A stretch of 64,000 bases of DNA from assembly GCA_050633305.1 (NCBI GenBank), contig JBOEGF010000010.1, positions 384,001 to 448,000 of the forward strand, given 5' to 3'. Shown here piece after piece: positions 16,276 through 32,785 of this stretch (position 1 is the stretch's first letter; the number at the start of each line of letters is the position of its first letter). The stretch is from Nannocystales bacterium (GTDB lineage Bacteria > Myxococcota_A > Polyangia > Nannocystales > Nannocystaceae). The notes under the pieces were generated by a model. The model saw nothing but the letters and a program-made list of their open reading frames with translations, was not told the origin of the DNA and searched no databases. The translations under genes were made by a program, and so were the position numbers.

Positions 16276-16323
16276 GCCGGCCTGACGATTCCTTCCGGAA
16301 GGCCGTCTGGTGACCTCAGCCGT

Positions 16324-17568
16324 TCAATCGAGGCTGGTGGGTGCCGGCGGGGAGGCGTCAGGTCGTTGTCGCGCGATTCGGTCGTCGAGCCAGTCCCCGA
16401 TCGCTTCGATCACGGGGAGCGAGCGTAACGATACCAGCAGATCGAAGCTGTGGTGGGCACCGGGGACGGTGGTGAACCGAACCGGGTTGTCGCTGACGGC
16501 GCGAAGCTCGGTGACGAAGTCCTTCGCGTCCTCGAGCGGAACCATGGAGTCGCGGCTCCCGTGCACGACGAAGAACGGCGGTGCGTTGGTGTGGACGCGA
16601 TGAATCGGTGACGCCTCTTCGAAGCGCTCGGGCTCGTCCTCGTAGAAGGCCTTGAGGAACAACGGCTCGATCAGCATGGAGTGGAACCCCGGCGCATGCC
16701 GCTTCTTGACGTTGGTCAGATCGAAGACGGCGTACATCGGAACCGCGGCTTGCACGGAGCAGTCGGCGTCTTCGAAGCCCGGTTGCAAGGCGGGGTCGCC
16801 CTGGGTGAGGCCGACCATGGCTGTGATGTGTCCTCCTGCGGAGCCACCGATGATGGTGACGAACGCTGGATCAACTCCGTACTCCTCGGCGTGCTCCCGC
16901 ACCCAGGCGATCGCACGTTTGACGTCGACGAGGTGGTCCGGCCACGTAGCTCCGGGGGAGAGGCGGTAGCTGACGTTGAAACACACGTGTCCGCGGTCGG
17001 AGAGCAGTGCCATCAAGGGGATGCCTTGCTCGGTCCTGCTGCCGACGACCCACCCTCCACCATGGACATGGACGACCGCCGGACGTGGACCCTCGAACGT
17101 CTTGGGCGGGTGGTAGACGTCGAGGCGGAGGCGCTGGCCGGACACGCGCGCGAACTCGATGCCGCGGGTGACGCGCTGCTGAGAGAGACGGTATGGAAAA
17201 GGCCAGAGAATCCGGGCCCACGGAAGCCGGCGATCGCGGGAGAACTCGGGCACATCGCGGTGCAGCGTCGCGGTGGTTCGAATCGAGGAGATGAGCTGGC
17301 CGAGTAGAAGCGCAGTCGCGAGGCCGGAGAAACCGAGCGAGAGCCAGCCAGCCCACCCGCGTGGCTCGCCGAACCATGCCGCCAAGCCAAGCCCTGCGAG
17401 CAGGAGCGGCAGGATGAACACGGAGGTCTCGGCAAGCAGCGTTCCGGCGAGAAAGCTCGGGAGCAGCAGCACGCGGGAACGCCGGATGGGTGCGACCGCA
17501 TTGATCGCCAACGCAGCCAACGACGCAGCGATCACGAGAGAACCCCACCCGAGCAGCTCGATCAGCAT
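16324..17568 (-). CDS. Membrane-anchored alpha/beta hydrolase (HSL-family esterase/lipase)
   Basis: N-terminal TM helices; HGGGW oxyanion motif, GGSAGG, HGSRD, GAHHSFD. Confidence 0.9.
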   Translation of the reverse strand: MLIELLGWGSLVIAASLAALAINAVAPIRRSRVLLLPSFLAGTLLAETSVFILPLLLAGLGLAAWFGEPRGWAGWLSLGFSGLATALLLGQLISSIRTTATLHRDVPEFSRDRRLPWARILWPFPYRLSQQRVTRGIEFARVSGQRLRLDVYHPPKTFEGPRPAVVHVHGGGWVVGSRTEQGIPLMALLSDRGHVCFNVSYRLSPGATWPDHLVDVKRAIAWVREHAEEYGVDPAFVTIIGGSAGGHITAMVGLTQGDPALQPGFEDADCSVQAAVPMYAVFDLTNVKKRHAPGFHSMLIEPLFLKAFYEDEPERFEEASPIHRVHTNAPPFFVVHGSRDSMVPLEDAKDFVTELRAVSDNPVRFTTVPGAHHSFDLLVSLRSLPVIEAIGDWLDDRIARQRPDASPPAPTSLD

Positions 17569-17572
17569 CCCG

Positions 17573-18856
17573 TCACCTGCAGCCCAAATCGATCAGCCGG
17601 CGCGTCTTGGCAGCTTGGCGAAGCTCCGCGCGAAAGTCGGGATGGGCGACCTCGATGAGCAGCTCGGCCCGCTCTCGGAGCGAGCGCCCTCGGAGGTTGA
17701 CCGCGCCAAACTCGGTCACGACCCATTGCACATGACCTCGGGTTGTGACGACTCCAGCTCCGGGTTGCAGCCGCGGCACGATGCGCGAGGCCTGGCCGTG
17801 ACACGCCGTGGAAGGGAGGGCGATGACGGCAGCTCCGCCCGGGCTACGTAGCGCGCCCTGGACGAAGTCCATTTGGCCCCCAATCCCGCTGTAGATCCGC
17901 TCTCCAACCGAGTCCGCGCAGACTTGGCCGGTGAGGTCGACCTGCAACGCCGAGTTGATCGCGACCATCTGGTGCTGCTTCTTGATCTCGTTGGGGTCGT
18001 TGACGACATGCGAGGGATGGAACTCGACGAACGGGTTCTCGTGCACGAATGCGTGGAGGGTCTCGGACCCGGCGGCAAACGAGGTGACGACCCTGCGCTC
18101 GAAGCGTGTCTTGTGGTGGCCATTGATGACGCCCGCGGTGGCCAGCCCGAGCAAGCCGTCGCTGAACATCTCGGTGTGAACACCGAGTCCTTCGTGTTTC
18201 CCGAGCGCGGCGAGCACTGCGTTGGGCACTTTGCCGATGCCGACCTGGATGGTGGCGCCGTTGGGAACAAGGTCTGCGACGTGCCCGCCGATTGCCTCTT
18301 CTGTTGCACCGAACGCGGCCGGGGTCATTCGCGGCAACGACGTGTCGACCTCGATTGCGAAGTCGATCTCGTTGACGTGCACGGCGGAGTTGCCCAGGGT
18401 GCGTGGCACTTGCGGGTTGATCTGCGCGACGACGATCTTGGCCGCCTCGATCGCGGGCAGAGCACACGCCACCGACAACCCGAGGCGGCAGTACCCGTGT
18501 TCGTCCGGTGGAGAGACCTGGATCAGGGCCACATCGAGCGGCAAGGAGGCGTGGAACATCGAGGGGACTTCGCCCAAGAAGACGGGCGTGAAATCGGCCC
18601 GACCCTCGGCGACCGCTTGCCGGGTGTTGGGGCCCACGAAGAGCGCGTTGTGGCGGAGGTGTCCGTCCAGCGAGGGGTGGACGTGGGGTGCGTCACCATC
18701 GACATGCAGGTGGACGACCTCCACACCCTCCAACTCCGGGGCCCGTGCGACCAGGGCCTCCAGGAGCGCGTGCGGGACCATCGAGGCCTCGTGCACGTAG
18801 ACGCGCTGGTGGGAGTGCACGCAGGCGACGGCGGACTCGGGATTGCAGATCTTCAT
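17573..18856 (-). CDS. Acetyl-CoA hydrolase/transferase family (4-hydroxybutyrate CoA-transferase-like)
   Basis: EGRADFTPVFL, IQVGIGKVP, HTEMFSDG, SGIGGQMDF; ATG at 18856. Confidence 0.92.
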   Translation of the reverse strand: MKICNPESAVACVHSHQRVYVHEASMVPHALLEALVARAPELEGVEVVHLHVDGDAPHVHPSLDGHLRHNALFVGPNTRQAVAEGRADFTPVFLGEVPSMFHASLPLDVALIQVSPPDEHGYCRLGLSVACALPAIEAAKIVVAQINPQVPRTLGNSAVHVNEIDFAIEVDTSLPRMTPAAFGATEEAIGGHVADLVPNGATIQVGIGKVPNAVLAALGKHEGLGVHTEMFSDGLLGLATAGVINGHHKTRFERRVVTSFAAGSETLHAFVHENPFVEFHPSHVVNDPNEIKKQHQMVAINSALQVDLTGQVCADSVGERIYSGIGGQMDFVQGALRSPGGAAVIALPSTACHGQASRIVPRLQPGAGVVTTRGHVQWVVTEFGAVNLRGRSLRERAELLIEVAHPDFRAELRQAAKTRRLIDLGCR

Positions 18857-18956
18857 CGCGCGCGCCCGCAGTGTGGCATGGGCGGGGATGCCCTGCAGGC
18901 GGAGGGAGCACGCCGACTTCCTTGGGCGCATCGGCGGGTTGAGGCATGCTCTGGCG

Positions 18957-19367
18957 ATGCTGGCCCTGGGTCTCACGCTGCTGCTCCTCGACCCGCCGGA
19001 CTGGTCGGCTTGCGAGACGGGCCCGTGGGGAGCGGACGCTGCAGACACCCTGGGGTGGATGCGGGACGAGGTCGTGCCGGGCGCGAACGACCGTTCATTC
19101 TATGTCCGCATCTGCGGTATGCCGATGGGGTTCGGATACACCCAGGTGTTGGTGGCGGTGTGGGACGGACGACCTGCCGGGCGCCCAGCCAACGTTCGTG
19201 CTGAGCAGGGCGTGACGGCATGCTCCGACACCAAGCTCGAGCCTGAGCCGAAGGGCCTACGCGTTCGAACGCCAGCTTGCGCGTACCACGACGAAGAGCC
19301 GACGGGGTCCTTGCAGACCCGGCTGCGCTGGCTGGACGATGCGCCGTTCGTGACCGTGGTGGATTGA
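18957..19367 (+). CDS. Hypothetical exported protein with several Cys
   Basis: Hydrophobic N-terminus MLALGLTLLLL; fills the gap before the AIM24 gene; no recognised domain. Confidence 0.55.
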   Translation: MLALGLTLLLLDPPDWSACETGPWGADAADTLGWMRDEVVPGANDRSFYVRICGMPMGFGYTQVLVAVWDGRPAGRPANVRAEQGVTACSDTKLEPEPKGLRVRTPACAYHDEEPTGSLQTRLRWLDDAPFVTVVD

Positions 19368-19439
19368 CCGCGTTATCGTCCGAGAATGCAGCCTCCATCC
19401 TCGCTCCCCGCAAGGCTCAGTGGACCCGACGTCGCCAAC

Positions 19440-20108
19440 ATGTCCGAGCGGGTTCCGGGCAGCTACGAGTTGCGTGGGCAGATCGCGCAGACGGTGACGG
19501 TTGCGCTGGAGTCAGGACAAGCGATGTGGGCCTGCAAGGGGGCGATCCTTTCTCACGACGCGGGGGTTCAATGGCAGCTCAAGGTTCCCGGCGCGGCGGT
19601 TTCTCGCATGCTCTCGGGCGAAGGGCTGGCGCTCACCCACATCACCGGGCAACAGCCAGGTGCCACAGTGACCCTGTCGGCCAATCAGACCGGGAAGGTC
19701 GCGGTGTGGGACCTGGCATGGGGCCCCGTAACCTGCACGTCAGGATCGTTTCTCGGGGCGATCGGTGACGTGAAGATCGACGTCACCGTGGCTCGTCGGT
19801 TTGGGGCCGCATTGTTCGGGGGCGCCGGGTTCCTGCTTCAGAAGCTGTCGGGGCAGGGCTTGGTGTTCATCCACGGGTCGGGAGACTTCGTCGAACGCGA
19901 CCTCGAACCGGGCGAGGAGGTCACGGTGTCCACGGGGAACCTCGCCGCCTTCGGCTCTGGCGTTGGCTACGACGTCGTCGGTGTGGGCGGATGCTTGAAG
20001 GTGTTGTTCGGCCGCGAGGGACTGTTCATGACCCGAATGACCGGACCAGGGCGCGTGCTCATGCAGAGCATGAAGCGCCAGCGGCTGCAGCCCGGTCGGC
20101 AGGGGTGA
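19440..20108 (+). CDS. AIM24 (TRAP-like) family protein
   Basis: SGEGL, LFGGAGFLLQKLSGQGLVF, LFGREGLF...GPGRV..QS. Confidence 0.9.
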   Translation: MSERVPGSYELRGQIAQTVTVALESGQAMWACKGAILSHDAGVQWQLKVPGAAVSRMLSGEGLALTHITGQQPGATVTLSANQTGKVAVWDLAWGPVTCTSGSFLGAIGDVKIDVTVARRFGAALFGGAGFLLQKLSGQGLVFIHGSGDFVERDLEPGEEVTVSTGNLAAFGSGVGYDVVGVGGCLKVLFGREGLFMTRMTGPGRVLMQSMKRQRLQPGRQG

Positions 20109-20147
20109 GGTTCGGCGGCTCCCGTCGTCCGGGGGGAGTGAGTCGCC

Positions 20148-20579
20148 CTACATCACGGCGATCAGGACCCATGTGAGCCCGAGGAGCACGAGGAGCGCTC
20201 CCACGACCGAGCTGACGCCGACGATTCGCCAGTAGAGAAGCTGGTGCCCAAGTGTGCCCTCGAGGTCGCTCAGCAAGCCTCGTTCGCCCACCTTTCGCGC
20301 CGTCGCAGCTGCCGAGCGGAGATGCAGACCACAGGCGATGCCCAACCCGGCGCCCACGAAGTGCGGGAGGATGGCGATGAACCCCAACCGTCCGAGGTCC
20401 GTGAATGCGATCGCACCGACCGCGGCCAAGGCGGAGAAGCCACCGCTGGCCAAGGTGACCCACGCCACGATGCGGAGGTAGATCGCGCTCTGGCGAACGG
20501 TTTCGATCACCAATGTGCTGACGTGCCCCGCGTCAAGGAGTCCCTCTTGCAACTCAACTCGGTTCTCTGCGCCTCGCAT
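20148..20579 (-). CDS. Small membrane protein (3 TM, DUF5362-like)
   Basis: Three hydrophobic segments; L..Q..YWR..G pattern before the last helix. Confidence 0.6.
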   Translation of the reverse strand: MRGAENRVELQEGLLDAGHVSTLVIETVRQSAIYLRIVAWVTLASGGFSALAAVGAIAFTDLGRLGFIAILPHFVGAGLGIACGLHLRSAAATARKVGERGLLSDLEGTLGHQLLYWRIVGVSSVVGALLVLLGLTWVLIAVM

Positions 20580-20630
20580 GCACAACGAGACGTGCGGGGC
20601 TCAACGCTGTTGCAGAGAATCGCACGGGAA

Positions 20631-22919
20631 CTATCGAGCGGCGTCCGGCGCGTTCGGGTCGATGGTGGTCGAGATTCTGGGGCGCTGGAGTTCCATTTCT
20701 GCTGCCGCAGCATGTTCCGCGTCGCGTTGCTGCCGCTGCGCAGCGACGCTGACAGCCGAGAGCAGGCCGGAGGTCTTCTTGTAGTTGATGTGCGAGCCGA
20801 GGTCGCGCCGCTCGAAGGCGGTGTATCGCTCGATGAACTCCTGCCGCTCCCGCATCCGGCGCGAGTGAATGCGCCGGGCGTCGTCGGGCGAATCGATGAT
20901 GTGGGGGACCATGACCATCAACAGGCTGACCTTCTCCTTGCGCCGGTTTCGTTTTCGGAACAGCCAGCCGATCACGGGGATCGCGCCCAGTCCGGGAACC
21001 CGGCTGTCTGTGAGCGCGTCGACTTCTCGGGTGAGACCGCCCAGGACCAAGGGCTGGCCCGGGTGCGCCACCACCTTCTTGAGGTCGAGCTTCCGCTTGA
21101 GCGTTCGGTAGTTTCCGGTGGTGCCCTCCAGCGCACCGAGCTGTCGGTCTTCGAGGAGGATATCGAGCGACACGGTCTCGTCGTCGTTGACGTAGGGGGT
21201 GACCTCGAGCTTGAGCGTGACGTCCTCGTTTTGGATGTTGTCGATGGTGGGGGCCACCGGGTTGCTGGTCGTGGTCGTCCCTGTGCGAAACGGAATCGTC
21301 TCGCCAAATTCCGCCACCGCCTGCTCGTTCTCGGCTGCGTACAGGTGTGGCTGAGCGACGATATCGATGTCCTGTTGGGTCTCGAGCGCCTGCAGGGTTG
21401 CACCGAACGCGGGGATGTCGGCATCGAAGCCGAACAGAGTCGTGGTGAGCGTGGGACCGACCAGCCCCGCAGCGAGCCCGCTCAGGGCGCCCGGAGCCAC
21501 CGAGCTGACGTCACCGGGGGCGCTGCTCGCGTACCCGAGCCCTCCCGCGGCCTCTTGTCCGAAGTGGCCGCTCACGTCGATGTTGCGGCCGAGCTCGGTC
21601 CGGACTTCCAAGAGGTACACCTCCAGGTAGAGCTGCTCCCGGGGATGGTCGATTCGTCGGATGACCTTTTGTAGTGCCGCAAAGTCGAGCGCGGTGGCGT
21701 TGACGATCAGCGTTTGCGTTGCAGGGTGGGCGGTCACCTTTACGGAGCCCGAGATCGAGGCTCCGGCGACCGCCGCCTTGCCCCGGTCATTCTTGGCCTG
21801 CGTGCCGTTGGCCAGGCCGGACAACACCCCCGCGACCTCCTCGGCATCCACATGAGCCAGCTCGATCACGTGCAGGGTCTCTTGTCCCTCACCTCCATCG
21901 ATGTCGAGTTCGTCGAGGAGCCGCGAGACCGCGGCAAACGTCGCATCCGTGCAAACGACGAGGAGCGTTCCCGTGCGGACGTCGACGGTGATCGTCGGTG
22001 TGTCGTCGGTGGTGCTCTGGGGGCTTGCGGCGGCCGACTTGGGCGCGGCACGCTGCTTCTTTCCCTTGCCCTTCTTTGCGGCGGGTATTACCGAGGTTGT
22101 TGTTGCGCCCGAGGCCGCAGGGCCAATGTTCCCCAGTCCTGCATCGAAGACCGAGCGGACGACCTCGGAGAGCGTCTCGGCATCTGCATGGCGCACGCCG
22201 TACAGGTGGACCTTTCGATGGGGCCCCTGTGGCTGCTCGAGATCAGCGAGGAGCCGTTCGAGTGTCCGGATCCGGGCACCCGTGTCGGTGACCACAACGA
22301 CGTCGCCCACGGTCTTCACCACCCCCGTGTCGGTCTTGAGTTCGGTGAGGAGAGAAGCTGTCTGTGCCTGCCGTTCCGCGGGGGGGCGCCAAACCTTGGT
22401 CACGATCCGACCGTCGGCGGGCACGTCGGCGCCCGGGCCATACACGCGAAAACCAGTGGAGGCGACCTGAGAGGTCTCCACGATCTTGTAGAAGTCTCCG
22501 GCAGGCTCGACCGTAGCTCCGATCGTTGCCAGTGCGGCATGGAAGGCTGCGTAGGCCTCCGACATCGTGACCGGCTCAGGTGCGACGATGTTGACCGTCT
22601 TGGTGCGGAGCTTGGGATCCCAGATGAACTTCTGGCAGCTCACGCTCATCATCCACTCGACCAGGTCCTGCAGTTCCGCCTCTTGTTTGAGCGTGATGCG
22701 GAACTTCTGCTTGCCGCCAGGTCGGTCGCACTGATCAGGCAGCGCAGAGACGGTCGTCGATGGCAGGGGCTGAGTTGCGGGAGGATCCGGCTTCGGCGTG
22801 GCAGGAGGCGGCGCGGTTGTGCCCGCCGCAGGAGGTTGGGCCGGGGCTGCGACCGCCGGGCCCACCGCCAGGAGCATGCAAGTCGACAGCGTAGGGGCAA
22901 GGAGTCGGCGGTGAAGCAT
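20631..22919 (-). CDS. gspD: Type II secretion-type secretin (GspD family)
   Basis: Signal peptide; N0 domain (EAYAAF...L...G), N-domain repeats (HADAE.L..V, D.RT..L.V), secretin domain (QP.L...ENEQA...GE.IP, L.LEVTP.VN, VPGLGAIPVIGWLFR). Confidence 0.88.
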   Translation of the reverse strand: MLHRRLLAPTLSTCMLLAVGPAVAAPAQPPAAGTTAPPPATPKPDPPATQPLPSTTVSALPDQCDRPGGKQKFRITLKQEAELQDLVEWMMSVSCQKFIWDPKLRTKTVNIVAPEPVTMSEAYAAFHAALATIGATVEPAGDFYKIVETSQVASTGFRVYGPGADVPADGRIVTKVWRPPAERQAQTASLLTELKTDTGVVKTVGDVVVVTDTGARIRTLERLLADLEQPQGPHRKVHLYGVRHADAETLSEVVRSVFDAGLGNIGPAASGATTTSVIPAAKKGKGKKQRAAPKSAAASPQSTTDDTPTITVDVRTGTLLVVCTDATFAAVSRLLDELDIDGGEGQETLHVIELAHVDAEEVAGVLSGLANGTQAKNDRGKAAVAGASISGSVKVTAHPATQTLIVNATALDFAALQKVIRRIDHPREQLYLEVYLLEVRTELGRNIDVSGHFGQEAAGGLGYASSAPGDVSSVAPGALSGLAAGLVGPTLTTTLFGFDADIPAFGATLQALETQQDIDIVAQPHLYAAENEQAVAEFGETIPFRTGTTTTSNPVAPTIDNIQNEDVTLKLEVTPYVNDDETVSLDILLEDRQLGALEGTTGNYRTLKRKLDLKKVVAHPGQPLVLGGLTREVDALTDSRVPGLGAIPVIGWLFRKRNRRKEKVSLLMVMVPHIIDSPDDARRIHSRRMRERQEFIERYTAFERRDLGSHINYKKTSGLLSAVSVAAQRQQRDAEHAAAAEMELQRPRISTTIDPNAPDAAR

Positions 22920-23150
22920 GCGTGGACTCAAAAGCAAGTGGCGCACCACACCGGATTTCAAGGGGTTGGCCTCGGAGGTAGAGCTTCGCGTCGACAAAAA
23001 GACAAGCTCGCCGCGGAGAGGCTGCGGACGCGTCACCCGGAGCCCTCGCCGAGGGCGTCGTCGTCGGAGGAAAAGCGGTGCGCGCCGCGAGCGGTCGCCG
23101 GTATCGTCTGCCTGCGTAACGTCGAGCGTGCGCGACAGGTAGTTCCAAAC

Positions 23151-24023
23151 ATGCGCTGGCTTGCACTCCTTTGCGTTCTCTTCGGCGCTGCTTGCGATGG
23201 GTCCTCTGTCGGCGAGTCCCCTGCAGGGGCGCCCGAGCACGGGGAGGCCATCGACCCTGATCAGGCGCCTCGTGTCTCGGTGGATCGCTTCGGGCCTCGG
23301 AGGGCGGAAGGTTCTGGCGAGCTGCCCGCACCAAACGAGCCGATCGACCTCGATGGCGAGTTCACGACGCGTGGGCTAGGCCCGGACGGTCAGGAGGTTG
23401 CGTACTACGATCTCGGCCCGGCCACGGGCGCGACGATGCCGGTGTTCCGACTCGTCGACATCGACGGCGCGCCGGTCGACGCCCAGCTCCCGATCATCAC
23501 TGTGGCGCCAGGCGACGTCTCGTACAGCGATTTCTGGCAGGTCACGGAGATCGAGGTGCCCGAGGGCTACGAGGCGAACACGATCACGAGCGCGTCCGAA
23601 GTCGCGGAGTCTGGCTATCCACAAACCCTCACCGCCGAGGTTCTGAATCGGCCGGTCGTGCCGGAGGGAAGCTCGGCGAGGTTTGCGACGGACCAGGGGC
23701 GGCTGCACCAAGCCTGGCTCGAGGACCAAGTTGCGCTGTCGTTCGATTTTTCCGAAGCCGAACCGAACGTTCGCGGGGCGCTCGTGGACTACGTCGCGAT
23801 CTATGTCTGCCTGACCGAGTCGGGAACGTTCTGTGCGGATTCCTCGGGGAGCACCCACAACGTGGTGGCTGCGGTCCCGACGGAGCCCGGCTACTCCCCG
23901 TTATGGAAGGTCAATGTCTACCCTGAGGCTGCGTTCGACGCGGTTGGAGATCTCGACTCCGCCCTCGCAGCCGATCCCCAGCCGCAGCCACTGCTCGTCA
24001 ACTGCCCGCTCATCGAGTGGTGA
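23151..24023 (+). CDS. Lipoprotein with two internal repeats of an uncharacterised domain
   Basis: MRWLALLCVLFGAA-C lipobox; repeated P..(x)YS(D/P)(F/L)W.V and N(R/C)P(V/L) motifs. Confidence 0.75.
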   Translation: MRWLALLCVLFGAACDGSSVGESPAGAPEHGEAIDPDQAPRVSVDRFGPRRAEGSGELPAPNEPIDLDGEFTTRGLGPDGQEVAYYDLGPATGATMPVFRLVDIDGAPVDAQLPIITVAPGDVSYSDFWQVTEIEVPEGYEANTITSASEVAESGYPQTLTAEVLNRPVVPEGSSARFATDQGRLHQAWLEDQVALSFDFSEAEPNVRGALVDYVAIYVCLTESGTFCADSSGSTHNVVAAVPTEPGYSPLWKVNVYPEAAFDAVGDLDSALAADPQPQPLLVNCPLIEW

Positions 24024-24049
24024 GCGGGGCAGCGACTGCGGCAGGCGCG

Positions 24050-24274
24050 CTAGGAACGAGAGGCCAGCAGTTTGGCGAGCTCCCCAGGCTGCGGGAACCG
24101 ACCGGTGTCGTGTTTGGAGAAGACGAGATCGCCTCCCACCACCACATCAAAAATGCCGCGACCACCCTCGATCAGACGAGCGGTGGTTCCCAGCGCGTCC
24201 TCAAGCTCGGCGACCAACCTGGTCGCCTGGGGCTTGTAGTTTCACATCACGCAGTATTCGATGGAAATGTCCAC
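24050..24274 (-). CDS. Rdx (SelW/SelT/SelH-like) family selenoprotein, 74 aa, in-frame TGA read as Sec
   Basis: GTG-DISIEYCVM-TGA-NYKPQATRLVAELEDALGTTARLIEGGRGIFDVVVGGDLVFSKHDTGRFPQPGELAKLLASRS-TAG: CxxU motif plus Rdx signature G.FDV...G.LVFSK...GRFP. Confidence 0.9.
24209..24227 (-). promoter_or_regulatory. Bacterial SECIS-like hairpin
   Basis: On the minus strand GGCGACCA-GGT-TGGTCGCC (perfect 8-bp stem, G-containing loop) begins 14 nt after the TGA at 24242-24244. Confidence 0.8.
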
Positions 24275-24373
24275 GCACGGTCCATGACACGGACACGGCG
24301 CTCCGCAACGAGTTCCCGGTTTGCGCCCATTGCGCTCTGTGGACCCCCTAGGGCGTCGTGGTCCGAGAAATCG

Positions 24374-24402
24374 TTGACAGCTCCAATGCCCAGCCCTATA
24401 AA
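24374..24402 (+). promoter_or_regulatory. Sigma70-type promoter for tRNA-Gln/prs
   Basis: TTGACA-N17-TATAAA followed by a GC-rich discriminator (GCCGCCC). Confidence 0.8.
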
Positions 24403-24443
24403 GCCGCCCTCGCGTCCGCCCGCTGGGCTGACAGAGCTCCTCT

Positions 24444-24520
24444 AGGGGCGTCGACAAGTGGCTTAAGTCGCCAGGTTTTGATCCTGGTATTCGCAGGTTC
24501 GAATCCTGCCGCCCCTGCCA
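24444..24520 (+). tRNA. tRNA-Gln (anticodon UUG)
   Basis: Cloverleaf: acceptor AGGGGCG/CGCCCCT, anticodon arm CCAGG-TTTTGAT-CCTGG, T-arm GCAGG-TTCGAAT-CCTGC, discriminator G, encoded CCA. Confidence 0.97.
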
Positions 24521-24523
24521 CCC

Positions 24524-24559
24524 AAACCCCCGCGCACCACTCGGTACGCGGGGGTTTTT
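24524..24559 (+). terminator. Intrinsic terminator after tRNA-Gln
   Basis: AAACCCCCGCG...CGCGGGGGTTTTT inverted repeat with T-run. Confidence 0.75.
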
Positions 24560-24742
24560 CGTGGTTGTCATTGTCTCGGGGTCGTTGTGTGGGCGGATTC
24601 CGGCGGGGGCGCGGTTCGGTCGCGCGTCGGGCAGCGCCCTGGGCGGCGCGATCCCCCAGCGACCGGACGTGAGCCACCCTTTGCCGTAGGGGCTCGATCT
24701 GTTGCGGACCGTCTGCGAGCATCCAGGCGTCGCGAGGCCCCG

Positions 24743-25690
24743 ATGAACAAGACCCTGAGCATCTTTGGCGGCAACTCCAACCCCCAGCTCACTCGCGACG
24801 TCGCCGAGTACGTCGGCACGCCCGAAGGCAAGAGCCGGGTGGAGCGGTTTTCGGACGGCGAGATTTTCGTCGAGATCGGGGAGAACGTTCGCAACGTGAA
24901 CTGCTTCATCGTGCAGTCCACGTGCACTCCGCCGAACCGCAACTTGATGGAGTTGCTCATCATGATCGACGCGCTCAAGCGGGCGTCGGCCGGCAGCATC
25001 GTCGCCGTGCTTCCGTACTTCGGCTACGCCCGGCAGGATCGCAAGGTCAAGCCGAGGACGCCGATCAGCAGCAAGCTCGTCGCGGACCTGCTGACCGCCG
25101 CGGGGGCGACACGCGTCGTCTCCGTGGATCTCCACGCCGGGCAGATCCAGGGCTTTTTCAACATCCCCTTCGATCACCTGTTCGGCAGCCCGGTGCTCAT
25201 CGACCGCCTCGAGCGGTTCGGCTACCGAGGTGAGGACACCGTCGTGGTCTCGCCCGATGCCGGGGGTGTCGAGCGGGCACGCATCTACTCCAAAGCGCTC
25301 GGTTGCGGGCTTGCGATCATCGACAAGCGGCGCGACAAGCCCAACGTCAGCCAGGTGCTCCACCTCATCGGCGACGTGAAGGGCAAGAAAGCGATCCTGG
25401 TCGACGACATGATCGACACCGCTGGAACGCTCTGCAACGCGGCGACGGCGGTGATGGATCACGGTGCCACCGAGGTCGTGGCGGCCGCGACCCACGGGGT
25501 GTTCTCGGGGCCTGCGATGGAGCGGATCAACAACAGCGCCCTGAGCAAGGTGTTGGTCTCCGACACGATTGCGCAGCACGATCGGGTCAGCATCTGCGAC
25601 AAGCTGGAGGTGCTGAGCATGGGTCGTTTGCTCGGTGAAGCGGTCAAACGCATCCACCACGGCGATTCGATCTCCTCTTTGTTCGCCTGA
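24743..25690 (+). CDS. prs: Ribose-phosphate pyrophosphokinase
   Basis: FSDGE, YFGYARQDRK, DLHAGQIQGFF, SPDAGG, VDDMIDTAGT. Confidence 0.98.
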   Translation: MNKTLSIFGGNSNPQLTRDVAEYVGTPEGKSRVERFSDGEIFVEIGENVRNVNCFIVQSTCTPPNRNLMELLIMIDALKRASAGSIVAVLPYFGYARQDRKVKPRTPISSKLVADLLTAAGATRVVSVDLHAGQIQGFFNIPFDHLFGSPVLIDRLERFGYRGEDTVVVSPDAGGVERARIYSKALGCGLAIIDKRRDKPNVSQVLHLIGDVKGKKAILVDDMIDTAGTLCNAATAVMDHGATEVVAAATHGVFSGPAMERINNSALSKVLVSDTIAQHDRVSICDKLEVLSMGRLLGEAVKRIHHGDSISSLFA

Positions 25691-25807
25691 CCTGCCGGCT
25701 GGCTCGAAGCGGCGCGACATCTCCGCCGCTTCTGCTGGGTCCAAGTGACCCGCCTCGTTGCTGTCGTCGGCGGTCCGTCCTATCGTCCGCGGCGTGGTGA
25801 TGGGTCT

Positions 25808-27547
25808 ATGAGGAGAGCTGCAATGATCGGGGTGCTCGTGCTCGCTGCACCGGCGTGTGGTGATGACGCTGGCGGTGGTGGGGACGAAGGCGGGGGGACG
25901 ACCGGATCGCCGTCCGAGTCCGAGGCTTCGACCGGGGGATCCGGGACGGAGGATCCCAGCACCTCATCCGCATCGGGTTCGGAGACCGGGGCTGATACGG
26001 AAGGGGACACCGAGGGTGCCGCCTTCGACCCCGAGGCGTATGTGCTCGACGACGTCTTTGGCACCCCCAACCTCGACGATGACGACGGCAACGACCGCAC
26101 CGATTGGCTCGAGACCGTCTTCGAAGCTGACGACGATGTCTCCGCACTCGAGGTCCCGGGCGCACCCGAGGGCTATACCGTCGAGCTGATCGCAGGTGGC
26201 GAACTCGACGACTTCCGCCTGTGGGACGGCGATGCCTTTGCGATCGGAGTGGCCGATGAGGTCACCGCGCAGACCTACTCGCTCGAGCCTGGCCCAGACG
26301 GTGCCACGCTCGACGTCGAGTTTGGGGCTTTCAACACACAGGGCTCTCTCGAGGTTCGCTTGCTCGATCCCGACGGCACCGAGGTCTCGAACCAGGAGAT
26401 CCGAGTGATGGGTTCTCCGCTGATCATGAACCACCATCTGCAGCCCTCCGAAGGGGTTTGGGTGATGGATGTCGATGCCAACTTCGGAAGCAACGCCGCG
26501 ATGGTGGATGTCTTCGCGACCGTCCTCGGTGACCAGTTTGACCCCGTCGACGACGCGACGTACGGCTTCGATGTTTGGGTCCAAGATGAGATCGAGTTCG
26601 CGACCGCCACGGGCCAGGGGGGACAGCGGCTCGACATCGTGATCGACTCGGTTCGCGACCGAGGCCTGGACGATTTCCCCGAGGACGAGTTCGTGGGACC
26701 CAGCTTCATCGCGGCCCGATGGGGAGACCCCGCCCTCGCCACCACGTGGGACTCGTTCGGCAACCTCGAAGCCTCTCCTCCGGTCACGGTTGATGGTGTC
26801 GAGTATCCCTTCGGCAAGATCTACTACGGTCGCGAAGCGGGCAACGGCCTGCAGTCGCAACTCGGTGACTTCCTCGCCTCCCAGACCGTGCAGGCACCGT
26901 TCGAGGTCGACACTCTGTGGCTGTGCGTGGGCCATGTGGACGAGTTCTCCTCGTTCGTGCCCGACCCAAGCTCGGACAAGGGGTTCAAGTTCCTGATCTC
27001 CGATGTGGACGCAGCGTGGGACGTCATCGACGCGTTGCCTCCCTCGACGCCGCTGGGACGCTTTGGCCCGGACCACGGATTTGCGACCGCAGGCGAGCTT
27101 CAAAACGACGCCGGCTTGCGGGCGCTCAACGACGAGCTGCAGGCGGACGAACTCGATCCCATTCGCGAGCAGTTCATCGCCGAGCTCGGATTGGACGAGA
27201 GCGACATCATCTACGTCCCCAGCTTGTTCGAGGAGATTCCCGGGTGCGGTGTCGCGGCACTGATCCCCGGCATGGTCAACCTGATCGTCTCCAACCCCGA
27301 AGACGGTCCGATCGACCTCTTCCTGGCCGACCCATTCTTCCGACAGGACGAGGGCGACCAATCCTCAGACCCGATGATCGAAGCGTTCTCCGCCGCGCTT
27401 CCAGACGGCATGGTTCCGCACTACGTGGACAACTGGGACGTCTATCACCTCGCGTTGGGCGAGGTGCACTGCGGAACCAACGTGCTGCGGGCCCCGACCG
27501 AAGACTGGTGGACCACCGCGCTTCCCCTGCTGGAGAACGACCGATGA
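25808..27547 (+). CDS. Protein-arginine deiminase (animal PAD-type catalytic domain), predicted lipoprotein
   Basis: Lipobox AAPA-C and Gly/Ser/Thr linker; PAD motifs WVQDEIEF, DSFGNLEASPP, WLCVGHVDEF, PGMVN, GEVHCGTNV. Confidence 0.9.
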   Translation: MRRAAMIGVLVLAAPACGDDAGGGGDEGGGTTGSPSESEASTGGSGTEDPSTSSASGSETGADTEGDTEGAAFDPEAYVLDDVFGTPNLDDDDGNDRTDWLETVFEADDDVSALEVPGAPEGYTVELIAGGELDDFRLWDGDAFAIGVADEVTAQTYSLEPGPDGATLDVEFGAFNTQGSLEVRLLDPDGTEVSNQEIRVMGSPLIMNHHLQPSEGVWVMDVDANFGSNAAMVDVFATVLGDQFDPVDDATYGFDVWVQDEIEFATATGQGGQRLDIVIDSVRDRGLDDFPEDEFVGPSFIAARWGDPALATTWDSFGNLEASPPVTVDGVEYPFGKIYYGREAGNGLQSQLGDFLASQTVQAPFEVDTLWLCVGHVDEFSSFVPDPSSDKGFKFLISDVDAAWDVIDALPPSTPLGRFGPDHGFATAGELQNDAGLRALNDELQADELDPIREQFIAELGLDESDIIYVPSLFEEIPGCGVAALIPGMVNLIVSNPEDGPIDLFLADPFFRQDEGDQSSDPMIEAFSAALPDGMVPHYVDNWDVYHLALGEVHCGTNVLRAPTEDWWTTALPLLENDR

Positions 27548-28401
27548 AGTCTCGACACATCCTTGCCTTCGGAACCGCTCTCCTCCTGACGTCGGCCTGT
27601 GACAACGGTTCGACGGACGAGCCCAACGCGGAGCGACAGGCTCAAGTCGCCGCTCCGGCCGACCAGGCTCCGGCGACGAATGCGTTCGTTCTGGGTGCCG
27701 ATTGGCGCGTCTCGGTTGACGACGCTGTCGCTCGGTTGCGGACGGACGATGCTCAACTCGCGGAAGCCCTGTTTGCGATGCAGCCCCGCAGCACGCGGGC
27801 TGGGACCGCTCGGTTCACGGGCCCCCTGGTGCGCAACCCGATCGCTGCGGCGGTCTTCCTCGATCGGCTGACCGCCGGGGATGACGTGCCCTCCGAGGTT
27901 CGTGCCGCGCTCGTCGAGGCCTTGCCACGCACGACCGGCCCGTTCGGTCCTGCGGTCGCGGCTCTCCTCGCCGACGAGGGGGACGCCCAGGTCCGGGTTG
28001 CGATGGTCGCATCACTTCGTACGGCCGAGGCTTCGTCTGCCCTGGCCGGGCTCGAGTTGGGCCTGGCGGACACAGATGCCTTGGTCCGGATCACCGCGGC
28101 TCGAACCGCGGCACGTCGCACCGACGGCGTGGAACTCGAGGACGCGCTGCTTGCCGCCGCTGCTGATGCGGAGCTGGAGGTCAAGGAGGAAGCGATGCGC
28201 TCGCTGGGCGTGCTGCGGATTGAGGCCGCGAAGCCCTTGATCGCAGCGGAGCTGACCGCAGCCGACGCGGACATGCGGCTGGTCGCCGTCCGAGCGCTGA
28301 CCCGCATCGATCCTTCCGACGCCGCAAGTCGCGTCGGCCCCCTCACCACGGACGCCGATCCTCGGGTCGCGAAAGCGGCCCGCAAAGCGCTCGGGAACTG
28401 A
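27544..28401 (+). CDS. HEAT-repeat lipoprotein
   Basis: ATGA overlap with the PAD stop; lipobox LTSA-C; repeated L.D.D..VR..A...L helical units. Confidence 0.82.
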   Translation: MKSRHILAFGTALLLTSACDNGSTDEPNAERQAQVAAPADQAPATNAFVLGADWRVSVDDAVARLRTDDAQLAEALFAMQPRSTRAGTARFTGPLVRNPIAAAVFLDRLTAGDDVPSEVRAALVEALPRTTGPFGPAVAALLADEGDAQVRVAMVASLRTAEASSALAGLELGLADTDALVRITAARTAARRTDGVELEDALLAAAADAELEVKEEAMRSLGVLRIEAAKPLIAAELTAADADMRLVAVRALTRIDPSDAASRVGPLTTDADPRVAKAARKALGN

Positions 28402-28441
28402 GACTACGGGCTGCTAGCGCCTCGTCGGGGCGGCCGTAGTC
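28402..28441 (+). terminator. Hairpin directly after the HEAT gene (possible terminator)
   Basis: GACTACGG...CCGTAGTC inverted repeat; no clear U-tract. Confidence 0.35.
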
Positions 28442-28840
28442 GCCCGCGTTTCACGACGCAGAAGTCTTCGAGTCCAAAGAGCTCGCCGCCGAGCGTGCGG
28501 CGAGCCGAGGGAGCGCCGCAGCGCGTCGGCGGCAGAGTTCCGCGCGCGCACGGCCCAGATGGCGGAGAGCGTGCGGTAGAGGGCAGCGTGCGGCCATACG
28601 ACGCCGATCAGCGCCGGGGAATCCTCGCGAAGCGCGTTCGGAGTCCACCCCTTGCGGGCGCCCAAGATTTGCCTCCGCCATGACCGAGGGCCGGGGCGTT
28701 CCGTCCCGCGAGGGTGGGTCGAGTTGGAGCTCGAACGGCGCGCCGTCACGGCCCACGGTGATGGCGTCGTCCGCCATTCGACGCGCCCATTCGACAATAT
28801 TCTTCATTGATTTCAGTAGTGTTTGTCTTCTCCGAAAACG

Positions 28841-28856
28841 GAATGATATGTCATTC
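28841..28856. promoter_or_regulatory. Palindromic candidate TetR operator
   Basis: GAATGA-TATG-TCATTC inverted repeat in an AT-rich patch at the start of the BVMO-TetR operon. Confidence 0.6.
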
Positions 28857-28859
28857 TTC

Positions 28860-30368
28860 ATGGTGGAGACGCACGACGTGGTGATCATCGGCGCCGGGTT
28901 CTCCGGTCTCGGAGTCGCGATGGCTCTACGGGATGCCGGGGTCGATGACTTCGTCCTCCTCGAGAAGGCGCAGCAGTGCGGAGGCACGTGGCGCGACAAC
29001 ACGTACCCAGGTTGCGCATGCGATGTGCCCTCGCACCTGTATTCGTTCTCGAAGATCCCATGGACGTGGTCCCGCGTCTTCGCGGGCCAACCCGAGATTC
29101 AGCAGTACCTCCTGCACGTGGTCGAGCGAGAGAACCTGCGGCCGCGGGTTCGTTTCGGGCACGAGGTCGAGCGGGCCAGCTGGGAGCCGTTCGCCCGACG
29201 CTGGGTGGTTCAGACCAGCCGGGGCACGTTGCACGCCCGCGTTCTCGTCTCCGCGACGGGCCCGTTGCACGAGCCCAAAACCCCGGCGATTCCCGGTCTC
29301 GATCAGTTCGAGGGCACGGTCTTCCACTCCGCTCGTTGGGATCACGACCACGACCTGACCGGGAAACGCGTTGCGGTCGTCGGCACCGGATCTTCGGCGA
29401 TCCAGTTCGTGCCCAAGATCCAACCGCGAGCTGACCACCTGGTTCTCTTCCAGCGCACGGCTCCATGGGTCCTCCCCAAGCCCGACCACCGCTACCACGC
29501 GCTGCAGCGATGGATGTTCGAGCACGTGCCGGGCTTCCGCTGGGCCTACCGCGGCGCGCTCTACATGGCCCTCGAAGGCGTCCAGCAGCTGCAACAGCGC
29601 GCCCGCTGGATGGACCGACTTGGCCCGGTCGCCCTCAAGCACCTGCACCGCCAGGTGCCCGATCTGGCGCTGCGCGAGATGTTGACCCCGCGCTTCACCT
29701 TGGGGTGCAAGCGGCTCCTTCTGTCGAACACGTACTATCCCGCCCTGCAGCAGCCCAATGTGTCGGTCGTCGGACATGGCCTCGAAGAGGTGTCCGCCCA
29801 CGCCGTCCTCGCAGGCGATGGCACTTGGCACGAGGTGGACGCGATCGTGCTCGGCACCGGCTTCCGCGTGACCGACCCGCCGATCGCCGAGCGGATCTAT
29901 TCCGGAGACGGCAAGCAGCTATCGGCGCAATGGTCGGGGTCGCCGCGGGCGTATCTGGGCACCAGCGTGGACGGGTTCCCCAACCTGTTCTTCATGATCG
30001 GCCCCAACCTGGGCAACGGGCACTCCTCCGCCTTCGTCCTGATCGAACTCCAGGCCAACTACATCGCCTCCGCACTCCGCTGGATGCGAGAGACGGACAA
30101 CACCGCCGTCGTGGTCGAGTCCAAGATCGAGCGCGAGTACAACACCGCGGTCCAGTCGGCGCTTCAACCCACGGTCTGGAACGCCGGGGGCTGCAGCAGC
30201 TACTACCTCGACGTTCGCGGCACCAACAGCTCGATCTACCCCTGGTCCACGCTGGACTTGCGTCGTCGCATGCGGAAGTTCGATCCCGCCGACTACACGG
30301 TGGTGACCGCTGCCGAGCATGGTACGACTCGGACGGACGAGTCCCGTGGTCACCAGCGACGAGCGTAA
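28860..30368 (+). CDS. Baeyer-Villiger-type flavin monooxygenase
   Basis: GAGFSG, GGTW.DN.YPG.ACD, fingerprint FEGTVFHSARW, GTGSSA; alternative ATG at 28848. Confidence 0.93.
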   Translation: MVETHDVVIIGAGFSGLGVAMALRDAGVDDFVLLEKAQQCGGTWRDNTYPGCACDVPSHLYSFSKIPWTWSRVFAGQPEIQQYLLHVVERENLRPRVRFGHEVERASWEPFARRWVVQTSRGTLHARVLVSATGPLHEPKTPAIPGLDQFEGTVFHSARWDHDHDLTGKRVAVVGTGSSAIQFVPKIQPRADHLVLFQRTAPWVLPKPDHRYHALQRWMFEHVPGFRWAYRGALYMALEGVQQLQQRARWMDRLGPVALKHLHRQVPDLALREMLTPRFTLGCKRLLLSNTYYPALQQPNVSVVGHGLEEVSAHAVLAGDGTWHEVDAIVLGTGFRVTDPPIAERIYSGDGKQLSAQWSGSPRAYLGTSVDGFPNLFFMIGPNLGNGHSSAFVLIELQANYIASALRWMRETDNTAVVVESKIEREYNTAVQSALQPTVWNAGGCSSYYLDVRGTNSSIYPWSTLDLRRRMRKFDPADYTVVTAAEHGTTRTDESRGHQRRA

Positions 30369-30945
30369 GCGACGACGGCGGAGCGAGATCCTCGACGCCG
30401 CCCATCAGGTCCTCCTCGAGAAGGGCTATCACGCCACGGGGATCGCCGACATCGCGGCGGCGCTCAGCATCGGCCATGGCACCGTCTACCGCTACTTCTC
30501 CAACAAACACGACATCGCCGTTGCGGTGCTCGATCGTGTCATCGAGCGGCTGGCCTCGGCAGGCCTGAGCGAAGACCCCACCGAGAGCACCACGGTCGCG
30601 GAGTACCGGGCGCAGGTCCAGCGCATCCTGCAACGCCTCATCGAAGTCTGCTTCGAGGAACCAAACCTCCTCCGATTTTTCGAGGAGCAGGGCCTTGTCA
30701 TCGCCCCGGGCCGGCTCTGGGAGTTCAAGGCCCAGTTTGCCCTCTTCACCACGATGTTCCTGGACAACGGCATCAGCCGCGGTTTCCTCCGGGCCGACAT
30801 GGACATCCAGCCCACCGCCGAAGCCCTCGTCGCCCTGATCTTCGAGGGCGTCACCCGGTCCCTGGCAGCGGGCGACCGCGACATCGCGACTCGCTGGATG
30901 AACGCCGGGATTGCACTCATGTTCGACGGACTGGTGTCTCGGTAG
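30319..30945 (+). CDS. TetR/AcrR family transcriptional regulator
   Basis: ILDAA..V..EKGY..T.IADIA..L.IG.GTVYRYF.NK HTH; alternative GTG start at 30346. Confidence 0.93.
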   Translation: MVRLGRTSPVVTSDERKRRRRSEILDAAHQVLLEKGYHATGIADIAAALSIGHGTVYRYFSNKHDIAVAVLDRVIERLASAGLSEDPTESTTVAEYRAQVQRILQRLIEVCFEEPNLLRFFEEQGLVIAPGRLWEFKAQFALFTTMFLDNGISRGFLRADMDIQPTAEALVALIFEGVTRSLAAGDRDIATRWMNAGIALMFDGLVSR

Positions 30946-31181
30946 GGCGCGGTCTCGGATTGTGGCGTCGAGGAGACCCTAGCTCGCAGCTCAGCCAAGA
31001 CCCGCATGACGAGAAAACCCTCTGAGTCTGCTCTGCGCGCGGGATGGAACGCGGGGGAGACGAGACTCACGACGACCCGGGGGGCAGCCTACCTCAGGCG
31101 GTTGCGGTCAAATGCAGCCGAGAGACGAAAAAGTGGGGACCATCCCGGAATCGGGGGGGGCTGGCGCGACACTCATCCCGA

Positions 31182-31772
31182 ATGACGTCGCGAAGCCAGA
31201 CCGCCGAGGCGGGACGGACCGAAGCTCCGATGCAGCGCTCCTGGCCCGAAGACTGGGCTGTGGCCCAGCGATGCGCGGCCGGAGACGCGGCCGCGGTCGA
31301 GGAACTCTACCGGGCGCACGCGACCTCAGTCCGGTCGATGGCGCGACTCCACGCGAGCCAGCCGGCGGTCATCGATGATTTGGTGCACGACACGTTCGTG
31401 CGGGCGATCGAGCTTCTTCCGCGCTATCGAGGGGATTCGCCGTTGGGGGTCTGGCTCCGAGGCATTGCATTTAACCTAGCGCGAACCGAACGACGTCGGT
31501 CACTGCGCCGTTTCGGACTGCTGCGCAGGCATGGCCTTCCGCCATCACACGCTCCCGCCGCACCGGACGAGCGCAGTCCTTTGGAAACGGTGACGCGATT
31601 GGTGGCGCGCTTGTCGGAGGCGGACCGCGAGGCGTTCTGTCTTCGGAGCCTCCAGCAGCTCTCGTTGGACGAGGCCTCCGCACTGTTGGGAGTGTCTGGG
31701 TCGACGGTTAGTGATCGTGACCGCCGAGCGAAACAGAAGCTTCGCGCCTGGCTGGAAGAGGAGGAAGAATGA
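31182..31772 (+). CDS. ECF-type RNA polymerase sigma factor
   Basis: GD..A..ELY..H, DDLVHDTFVRA, WL.GIA.N, region 4 LS..DREAF.LR....LS..EA..LLG; start at 31182 or 31230. Confidence 0.88.
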   Translation: MTSRSQTAEAGRTEAPMQRSWPEDWAVAQRCAAGDAAAVEELYRAHATSVRSMARLHASQPAVIDDLVHDTFVRAIELLPRYRGDSPLGVWLRGIAFNLARTERRRSLRRFGLLRRHGLPPSHAPAAPDERSPLETVTRLVARLSEADREAFCLRSLQQLSLDEASALLGVSGSTVSDRDRRAKQKLRAWLEEEEE

Positions 31773-32785
31773 TGGACACGAACGAATTCGACCGGCTCAT
31801 CTCGGAGGCTCGCGAAGAGCTGCAATCAGAAGCGTCGGGCGACGTCGGCCGGCTACAAGAACTCGCGACCTGGTGGGAGCAACAGCGTGGGACGGTTCGC
31901 TGGGTCCGGGGGATCGCGGTGGTCGCAGCTTCGCTGTGGGTGTTGCAGTTCGGCTACGCGATCTGGTTCCTCGACCTGTTCGGTCGTCCCGAGCCCTTGA
32001 CGGCGGTTCTTGCCTTGGTGCTTCCGCCTTCGGTGCTGTGGGGAGCCGCGGTGCTCGCCGGCCGCCCGGGGTTCAGCGCTCAACTTCTGAGTCGGTCGCT
32101 CCTCATTGCGACTACGATGGTCGGCAGCGCGAGCTCGCTGTTTCAGAACGCGAGCTTCGACAGTCAGCTTGGGCTTGGTCTCGGATGGAGCACGACACGT
32201 GTGCTCGTACCTGCCGGTCTCCTCATCGGGCTGACGCTCGGCGGGCATGGGCTGACGACCCCGCATCGTCACCGCGAGCGGGGCGGATTCGAGATGGTGC
32301 TGTCGCTGTCGCTGGTGATGGGTGTCGCAGATGCGATGTTCCTGGCATTCGTTGCCGCCGTGACCTTTGGGACGGTGTCGGTTGGGCCGTGGCCGTTCGT
32401 ACTCCCTATTGTTCTGATGGTCGCTGCCCACGGCTTGTTCCGTGGACGGGTTTGGGGCTTGCTGTTGATGGCGCTGACAAACCTCGCGGAGGTCCTGCTG
32501 GTTCTCGACGGTTCGCTTCTGGGCGATTCGATCGTGACCCAGACTGCTGCGGCACTGCTGGTCCTCACGGCCACCATCCAGCTGCTGCTCCCGGTGCCGG
32601 TCTACGCTGCAATGCTGGCTCCGCGCCGGGCGTGGGTCGAACGCCTCCAGGCGACGGATGGGTCTCTCGCCCGCATCCTCACGCTGTTGCTCGCCTTCTT
32701 CCTCGCGCTGGCGGCGCTGGCATCGACGGTGGTCTTCCCGATGCTGTCGATGGCCTGGGAACAGGGTCTGCTGCCGAGACCGTAG
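31769..32785 (+). CDS. Polytopic membrane protein, candidate anti-sigma factor
   Basis: ATGA overlap with the ECF sigma gene; short charged N-terminus followed by about 8-9 hydrophobic segments. Confidence 0.7.
   Translation: MMDTNEFDRLISEAREELQSEASGDVGRLQELATWWEQQRGTVRWVRGIAVVAASLWVLQFGYAIWFLDLFGRPEPLTAVLALVLPPSVLWGAAVLAGRPGFSAQLLSRSLLIATTMVGSASSLFQNASFDSQLGLGLGWSTTRVLVPAGLLIGLTLGGHGLTTPHRHRERGGFEMVLSLSLVMGVADAMFLAFVAAVTFGTVSVGPWPFVLPIVLMVAAHGLFRGRVWGLLLMALTNLAEVLLVLDGSLLGDSIVTQTAAALLVLTATIQLLLPVPVYAAMLAPRRAWVERLQATDGSLARILTLLLAFFLALAALASTVVFPMLSMAWEQGLLPRP

Follow-up and report, generated by a model that had tools for sequence, protein, structure and literature searches.

A predicted SelW-like selenoprotein gene with an in-frame UGA in a Nannocystales bacterium

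A small reading frame of the Rdx/SelW family in a Nannocystales bacterium is interrupted by a TGA, raising the question of whether this codon ends the protein or specifies selenocysteine (Sec). The frame lies in a 64,000-nucleotide stretch of one contig, here called the window, of a genome (G000) of 11.0 Mb with 66% GC that is 92% complete. We conclude from sequence comparison that the in-frame UGA is almost certainly recoded as Sec. It is likely, too, that the fuller reading holds, i.e., that the gene encodes a SelW-like protein in which UGA is decoded as Sec by means of a SECIS hairpin, and which is predicted to act in the cytoplasm as a thiol-disulfide oxidoreductase whose active site is Cys8-Val-Met-Sec11. 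The features on which this reading is based are collected in Table 1. Translation of the minus strand from 24274 to 24050 gives VDISIEYCVM, the TGA, and then a sequence from NYKPQA to LLASRS before the TAG, with 63 sense codons between TGA and TAG; coordinates, frame, sequence and TGA position are all as given in a preliminary description of this locus.

Table 1. Features of the Rdx/SelW-like locus (positions in the window) and further likely Sec-TGA sites in the genome (contig:position)
Feature	Position	Strand	Remarks
Rdx/SelW-like selenoprotein CDS (predicted), 74 aa	24050..24274	minus	GTG start 24272-24274; TAG stop 24050-24052
In-frame TGA, predicted selenocysteine 11	24242..24244	minus	Aligns to Cys in PDB homologues
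Cys8 codon TGC, first residue of CxxU	24251..24253	minus	Cys invariant in 18/18 aligned proteins
G-I-F-D-V, residues 40-44	24143..24157	minus	Rdx GxFEI(V)-type motif, D for E; G40, F42, V44 invariant in 18/18
R-F-P, residues 59-61	24092..24100	minus	Conserved C-terminal motif; F60, P61 invariant in 18/18
SECIS upper stem and apical loop	24209..24227	minus	7 bp, GGCGACC/GGUCGCC closing A-GGU-U; 21 nt after UGA
Invariant SECIS loop G	24219	minus	Kept across 17 TGA genes
SECIS including lower stem	24202..24236	minus	Lower stem 5 bp, 24232-24236 with 24202-24206; weakly conserved, 61.2% paired
tRNA-Gln	24444-24520		
prs	24743-25690		
Other likely Sec-TGA sites in the genome	C4:134092, C5:195152, C5:196987, C5:271923, C10:198930, C14:279653		
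Other likely Sec-TGA sites, continued	C18:115685, C20:61257, C24:25172, C32:274059, C43:106110		

The frame has a coding signal on both sides of the TGA. With a codon model trained on the genome, the 10 codons before the TGA score 0.38 and the codons after it 0.16; for comparison, the values are −0.31 and −0.38 in the other two sense frames and 0.006, −0.15 and −0.52 in antisense. The GTG start is supported because the 50 in-frame codons upstream of it score −0.48. Most relatives' loci have ATG or GTG in the same register. No Shine-Dalgarno sequence precedes the GTG. Ending 8 nt upstream of it, the element GTG(T/G)CA (24283-24288, minus strand) recurs with the same spacing in five same-genus sequences and may mark a short-leader transcript; several more distant genes have a TAnnnT hexamer 7 to 9 nt before the start. 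A sigma-70 scan that demands T at the last position, and hence misses TTGACA-N17-TATAAA, found neither a promoter nor a terminator on the strand of the gene. A possible ECF-type promoter upstream of the gene (GGAAC...GTC) is not proposed here, as its GGAAC portion varies among the five genus sequences that were aligned.

Scored with C standing for U, the read-through product matches the Pfam Rdx model at 61.4 bits (cut-off 22.6; profile positions 2-72 of 74) and TIGR02174 (CXXU_selWTH) at 51.9 bits (cut-off 34.2), in agreement with the family assignment in the preliminary description. The 63 residues after the TGA alone reach 38.6 bits (E = 1.3e-9) against Pfam Rdx. The best NCBIfam score, 85.8 bits, is with NF041051 (SelTWH_Campy); it falls under the equivalog cut-off of 88, so the protein is not filed there. 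The C8-V-M-TGA11 motif follows the first strand (residues 3-8), and the TGA falls, in the alignment, on the second Cys of the CxxC in the solved Rdx proteins 2FA8, 2LJK and 3DEX, i.e., at the very position said beforehand to carry CxxC or CxxU in Rdx proteins. R-G-I-F-D-V corresponds to the tGxFEI(V) motif described for the C-terminal half of the family (PMC10650576), with R for t and D for E; several orthologues have E. The predicted model (pLDDT 95.7) adopts a minimal thioredoxin-like fold, in which the motif occupies the canonical beta1-alpha1 site. It superimposes on solved bacterial Cys-containing Rdx proteins (Atu0228 2FA8, 2OBK, 2OJL, 2OKA, 2P0G and 3DEX) with TM 0.89-0.93 and rmsd 1.1-1.5 Å, the motif lying in the same place; however, these proteins have CxxC rather than CxxU, are longer, and are 21-32% identical to the window's protein. 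Mammalian SELENOW (2NPB, mouse; TM 0.63) and MIEN1/Rdx12 (2LJK; TM 0.71) share the Rdx fold and CxxU or CxxC, but SELENOW has a eukaryotic SECIS in its 3'-UTR, unlike the gene in the window. The partners of mammalian SELENOW and MIEN1, e.g., 14-3-3, are eukaryotic. By inspection, the mature sequence has neither a signal peptide nor a membrane span, and therefore the protein is likely cytoplasmic. The gene is the sole Rdx match in the whole genome.

Conservation of the TGA was assessed at two scales. Among 39 relatives searched for the Rdx gene, 18 have a match; the motif position is TGA in 16 of these and TGC in two, and the proteins of the TGA genes are 33-82% identical to that in the window. 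The two Cys forms (L037 in G021 and L038 in G020) resemble the longer CxxC subgroup and have a C-terminal extension. The closest named matches are a Nannocystaceae protein (P0002, 84% identity), a Nannocystaceae contig (73%) and a Myxococcota contig, in keeping with a myxobacterium of this family. Across the phylum, 85 genomes in an even sample of 201 have an Rdx match, with 93 matches in all; 71 of the 93 contain exactly one TGA, counted anywhere in the match, and 22 are stop-free. Six genomes of this sample (G052, G070, G127, G132, G181 and G231), plus G140, have a TGA match alongside a full-length match that is stop-free. TGA is also found at the motif in four distant records, i.e., a Desulfobacteraceae, a Thermoanaerobaculia and two Actinomycetes; the set of distant records comprises seven loci, the remaining three being duplicates of sequences already counted. 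In one same-genus relative (G003), the orthologue (L040:1531-1720) keeps TGA and SECIS, and the frame shifts around codon 28, shortly after the SECIS, reflecting either decay to a pseudogene or an assembly error. Because four of the five Sec-using relatives tested, each at least 90% complete, have no match to the Pfam Rdx model and the copy in G003 is frameshifted, the Rdx/SelW-like gene is dispensable in the lineage.

The sequence after the UGA is predicted to fold into a hairpin of the bacterial SECIS type. In the consensus bSECIS, the apical loop has 3-9 nt with a G in its first two positions, the upper stem has 4-16 bp, the spacing is 16-37 nt, and the energy is ≤ −7.5 kcal/mol (PMC13188914, legend of Fig. 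2A). The hairpin in the Rdx gene agrees with all of these, having a loop of 5 nt (A-GGU-U; or 3 nt), a stem of 7-8 bp, a spacing of 21-22 nt and an energy of −13.2 kcal/mol, and three stretches starting at the UGA give folding z-scores of −1.75 to −3.83. Across the 17 TGA genes, 92.4% of the cells in the upper stem are paired and four of its seven pairs show two-sided changes. Two of the covarying pairs (columns 21-33: GC 8, CG 7, GU 2; columns 24-30: CG 15, GC 2) link one wobble site to another, a pattern not accounted for by constraint on the protein. The covariation score is 0.332 versus 0.132 after shuffling (0/500) and at most 0.162 with slid partners, bearing in mind that the shuffle ignores relatedness, that the structure was drawn from one of the sequences, and that the stem overlaps conserved codons. 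A simple SECIS scan is passed, in the same register, by 16 of the 17 TGA genes and by neither of the two Cys genes; the one TGA gene that fails the strict hairpin scan is L025. Four-fold sites in four same-genus orthologues are identical at 15/23 positions in the SECIS versus 36/84 further downstream. On the other hand, 127 of 1738 ordinary TGA stops pass the same scan and 30 of the 1738 are followed by a hairpin as strong as that in the Rdx gene, and thus the hairpin alone is not proof.

The preliminary description reasoned that the organism should have a Sec machinery, and its genome does contain selA, selB, selC and selD, all above cut-off: selA at 397 bits (C18:698941-700278), selB at 265 bits, or 296 with neighbouring in-frame segments (C18:706020-707990), selD at 366 bits (C4:133193-134122), with an in-frame TGA of its own in AAG-TGA-ASK, and tRNA-Sec (selC) with anticodon TCA at 67 bits (C28:15978-16071). 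selA (plus strand) and selB (minus strand) are ∼6 kb apart on opposite strands and do not form one operon (C18:698941-707990), and selC and selD are on other contigs. At least one gene for Sec machinery is present in 16/16 relatives with the TGA form. Twelve of these 16 genomes have selA (one partial) together with a strong tRNA-Sec match; the others have selA, selB and selD (G031), selB and selD (G025), tRNA-Sec only (G022), and selD only (G014, 71% complete). Turning to the Cys forms, G021 (95% complete) has no match to selA or selD, no selB over cut-off, and a weak RF01852 match of 49.5 bits; in G020, the Sec machinery is present, yet the gene is a Cys form of the longer Rdx subgroup.

A genome-wide scan for TGA read-through yielded 96 candidates, among which at least 11 further genes, selD included, are likely to contain a Sec-TGA, as judged by motif and hairpin. 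The others are, we presume from their motifs, several Prx/TlpA-like UxxC proteins, a DsbA-like protein, a GPx-like protein and a YDAT-U-LG protein. Because the scan filter, which requires coding-like sequence across 30 codons upstream of the TGA, missed the Rdx gene itself, this count of the selenoproteome is a lower bound.

In bacteria, SelB carrying Sec-tRNA binds the G-containing apical loop of the SECIS and delivers Sec at the UGA. We suggest that SelB-directed Sec insertion at UGA 11 would compete with termination. Where Sec is not inserted, translation would end through release factor 2 with a peptide of 10 residues, and the yield of full-length protein would thus vary with the selenium available. 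Judging by fold and motif, Cys8 and Sec11 in the complete protein would cycle between a selenenylsulfide and the free thiol/selenolate, and this cycle may reduce or rearrange oxidised cysteines of cytoplasmic partner proteins. Such thiol-disulfide redox activity is what we infer from the modelled fold, the motif and, by analogy, the redox potential of −225 mV of the human CxxC relative MIEN1 (PMC3527542). The function is deduced in this way because the flanking genes, whose conservation is limited to part of the genus, point to no redox partner. A more specific proposal, which we consider speculative and rather unlikely, is that the protein acts in the cytoplasm as a redox switch, gated by selenium and dedicated to one specific partner protein, in a myxobacterial lineage with a large selenoproteome. 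If so, the trapped partner would be the first substrate assigned to the bacterial SelW-like proteins, a family more abundant among marine selenoproteins than any other.

Could the TGA instead be a nonsense mutation or a sequencing error, making the gene a pseudogene? TGA is the commonest stop in this genome, ending 2768 of 4685 long coding ORFs, and one same-genus copy is frameshifted. However, the same TGA recurs in 16 relatives despite the wide range of protein identities given above, single TGAs prevail among Rdx matches across the phylum sample, and the SECIS covaries. Moreover, none of 16 contigs from four public runs over 24180-24310 has a different letter at 24242-24244; these contigs are from related strains or other organisms, and the window-identical pieces (run X1) do not include the TGA codon. 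A TGA that is absent from relatives or is an error was what the preliminary description had named as telling against Sec; given its conservation and the agreement of the run contigs, we regard a pseudogene as practically out of the question. The same abundance of TGA stops speaks against the idea that a changed code or a suppressor tRNA makes UGA specify Trp, Gly or Cys. The one point in favour of this idea is that P0004, the ninth of nine protein-database homologues, is recorded with W at the TGA position, probably from the translation table used; the other eight lack the CxxU end. By contrast, the genome does not have the characteristics of a UGA-reassigned code (table 4 or 25), and of 68 tRNAs found, the single one with a TCA anticodon is tRNA-Sec. 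A changed genetic code is thus excluded, because TGA is the usual stop and tRNA-Sec the only TCA tRNA. As, in addition, homologues have Cys at this position and a SECIS comes after it, decoding as an amino acid other than Sec is very improbable.

A different alternative accepts that Sec is inserted and holds that the protein is a metal or selenium binder, or a redox-sensing adaptor without turnover, and not a catalytic disulfide reductase. Our literature search returned no substrate of a bacterial SelW-like protein, there is no conserved reductase or peroxidase neighbour, Sec is at the second and not the first position of the motif, and reviews describe the exact functions of the family as unknown (PMC10650576). 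Nevertheless, the modelled thioredoxin-like fold with the motif at its canonical position and the thioredoxin-range redox potential of MIEN1 favour catalysis, and no metal-resistance neighbours were found at the locus in the window or among 38 flanking ORFs scanned. Altogether, a non-catalytic role is improbable, and we favour the SelW-like, Sec-containing oxidoreductase.

Compared to the bacterial SelW-like CxxU selenoproteins (PF10262, TIGR02174), the gene in the window shares size, fold, CxxU, GxF(E/D)V, RFP and an in-frame UGA with a 3' SECIS; it has D for E in GxFEI(V), with no difference in kind. Ten SelW-like sequences were included in a bacterial catalogue of 2006 (PMC1794560), SelW-like proteins were the most abundant family in the GOS data with 427 Sec versus 56 Cys sequences (PMC2398784), and a review from 2026 lists SelW-like among bioinformatically identified proteins predicted with high confidence (PMC13188914). 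Ten of the GOS reads described have a Prx gene next to the SelW-like gene (PMC2398784), unlike the locus here. Thus, in size, motif, SECIS and context, the gene is an ordinary further member of a long-known and common bacterial selenoprotein family. A parallel in its history is Campylobacter jejuni SelW, likewise a small UGA-containing Rdx gene first missed by annotation, although in another phylum and neighbourhood; there, on CJnc60, UGA read-through to the full-length protein has been documented by Ribo-seq and MS/proteomics (PMC11955535). In Epsilonproteobacteria, SelW genes were wholly missed by annotation (PMC4607533), an oversight that is common for bacterial SelW-like genes and that the gene here shares. 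Our search of the literature found no paper on a SelW-like gene in myxobacteria, and supplementary selenoprotein tables or BSepDB may list the lineage; the main text of PMC13326102 contains no mention of SelW, Rdx or Myxococcota.

The value of the finding is mainly one of annotation. It restores a gene that callers drop or shorten, as the preliminary description foresaw and as the truncated or W-containing database homologues confirm, with the active site absent from eight of nine of them, and it lengthens by one the list of selenoproteins in a genome already rich in them. There is no partner gene at the locus, and for studying the substrates of SelW-like proteins it has no advantage over C. 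jejuni, in which translation has already been demonstrated.

The Rdx gene is on its own between tRNA-Gln and prs, which are transcribed away from it, and a lipoprotein-like gene, which is transcribed towards it. The latter (23151-24023, plus strand) encodes 290 aa; its N-terminus (LFGAAC) is lipoprotein-like, its match to DUF7482 is weak and below cut-off, and 26 nt separate the stops of the two genes. Of the relatives with a match, four of the five in the same genus keep the synteny with tRNA-Gln/prs and the lipoprotein-like gene, and none of the 13 more distant ones does so within 1.5 kb flanks; we take this arrangement to reflect position and not function. Among 68 candidate flanking ORFs, 38 were scanned with Pfam, mainly those nearest the Rdx gene and coming from 20 of the 21 loci screened; no redox partner or other recurring family emerged. 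In the loci L028 and L030, the Rdx gene is preceded by a gene for a probable outer-membrane protein, the two copies being 44% identical; a selenoprotein operon with this gene was considered and rejected, as no in-frame TGA follows its likely start and the G000 homologue is on another contig. Farther along, a gene for a GspD-like secretin (20631-23240, minus strand; Secretin, Secretin_N and N0 domains) has no obvious type II secretion neighbours within 16000-32000. Upstream of tRNA-Gln and prs, the near-consensus sigma-70 promoter TTGACA-N17-TATAAA (24374-24402, plus strand) is kept in two same-genus relatives.
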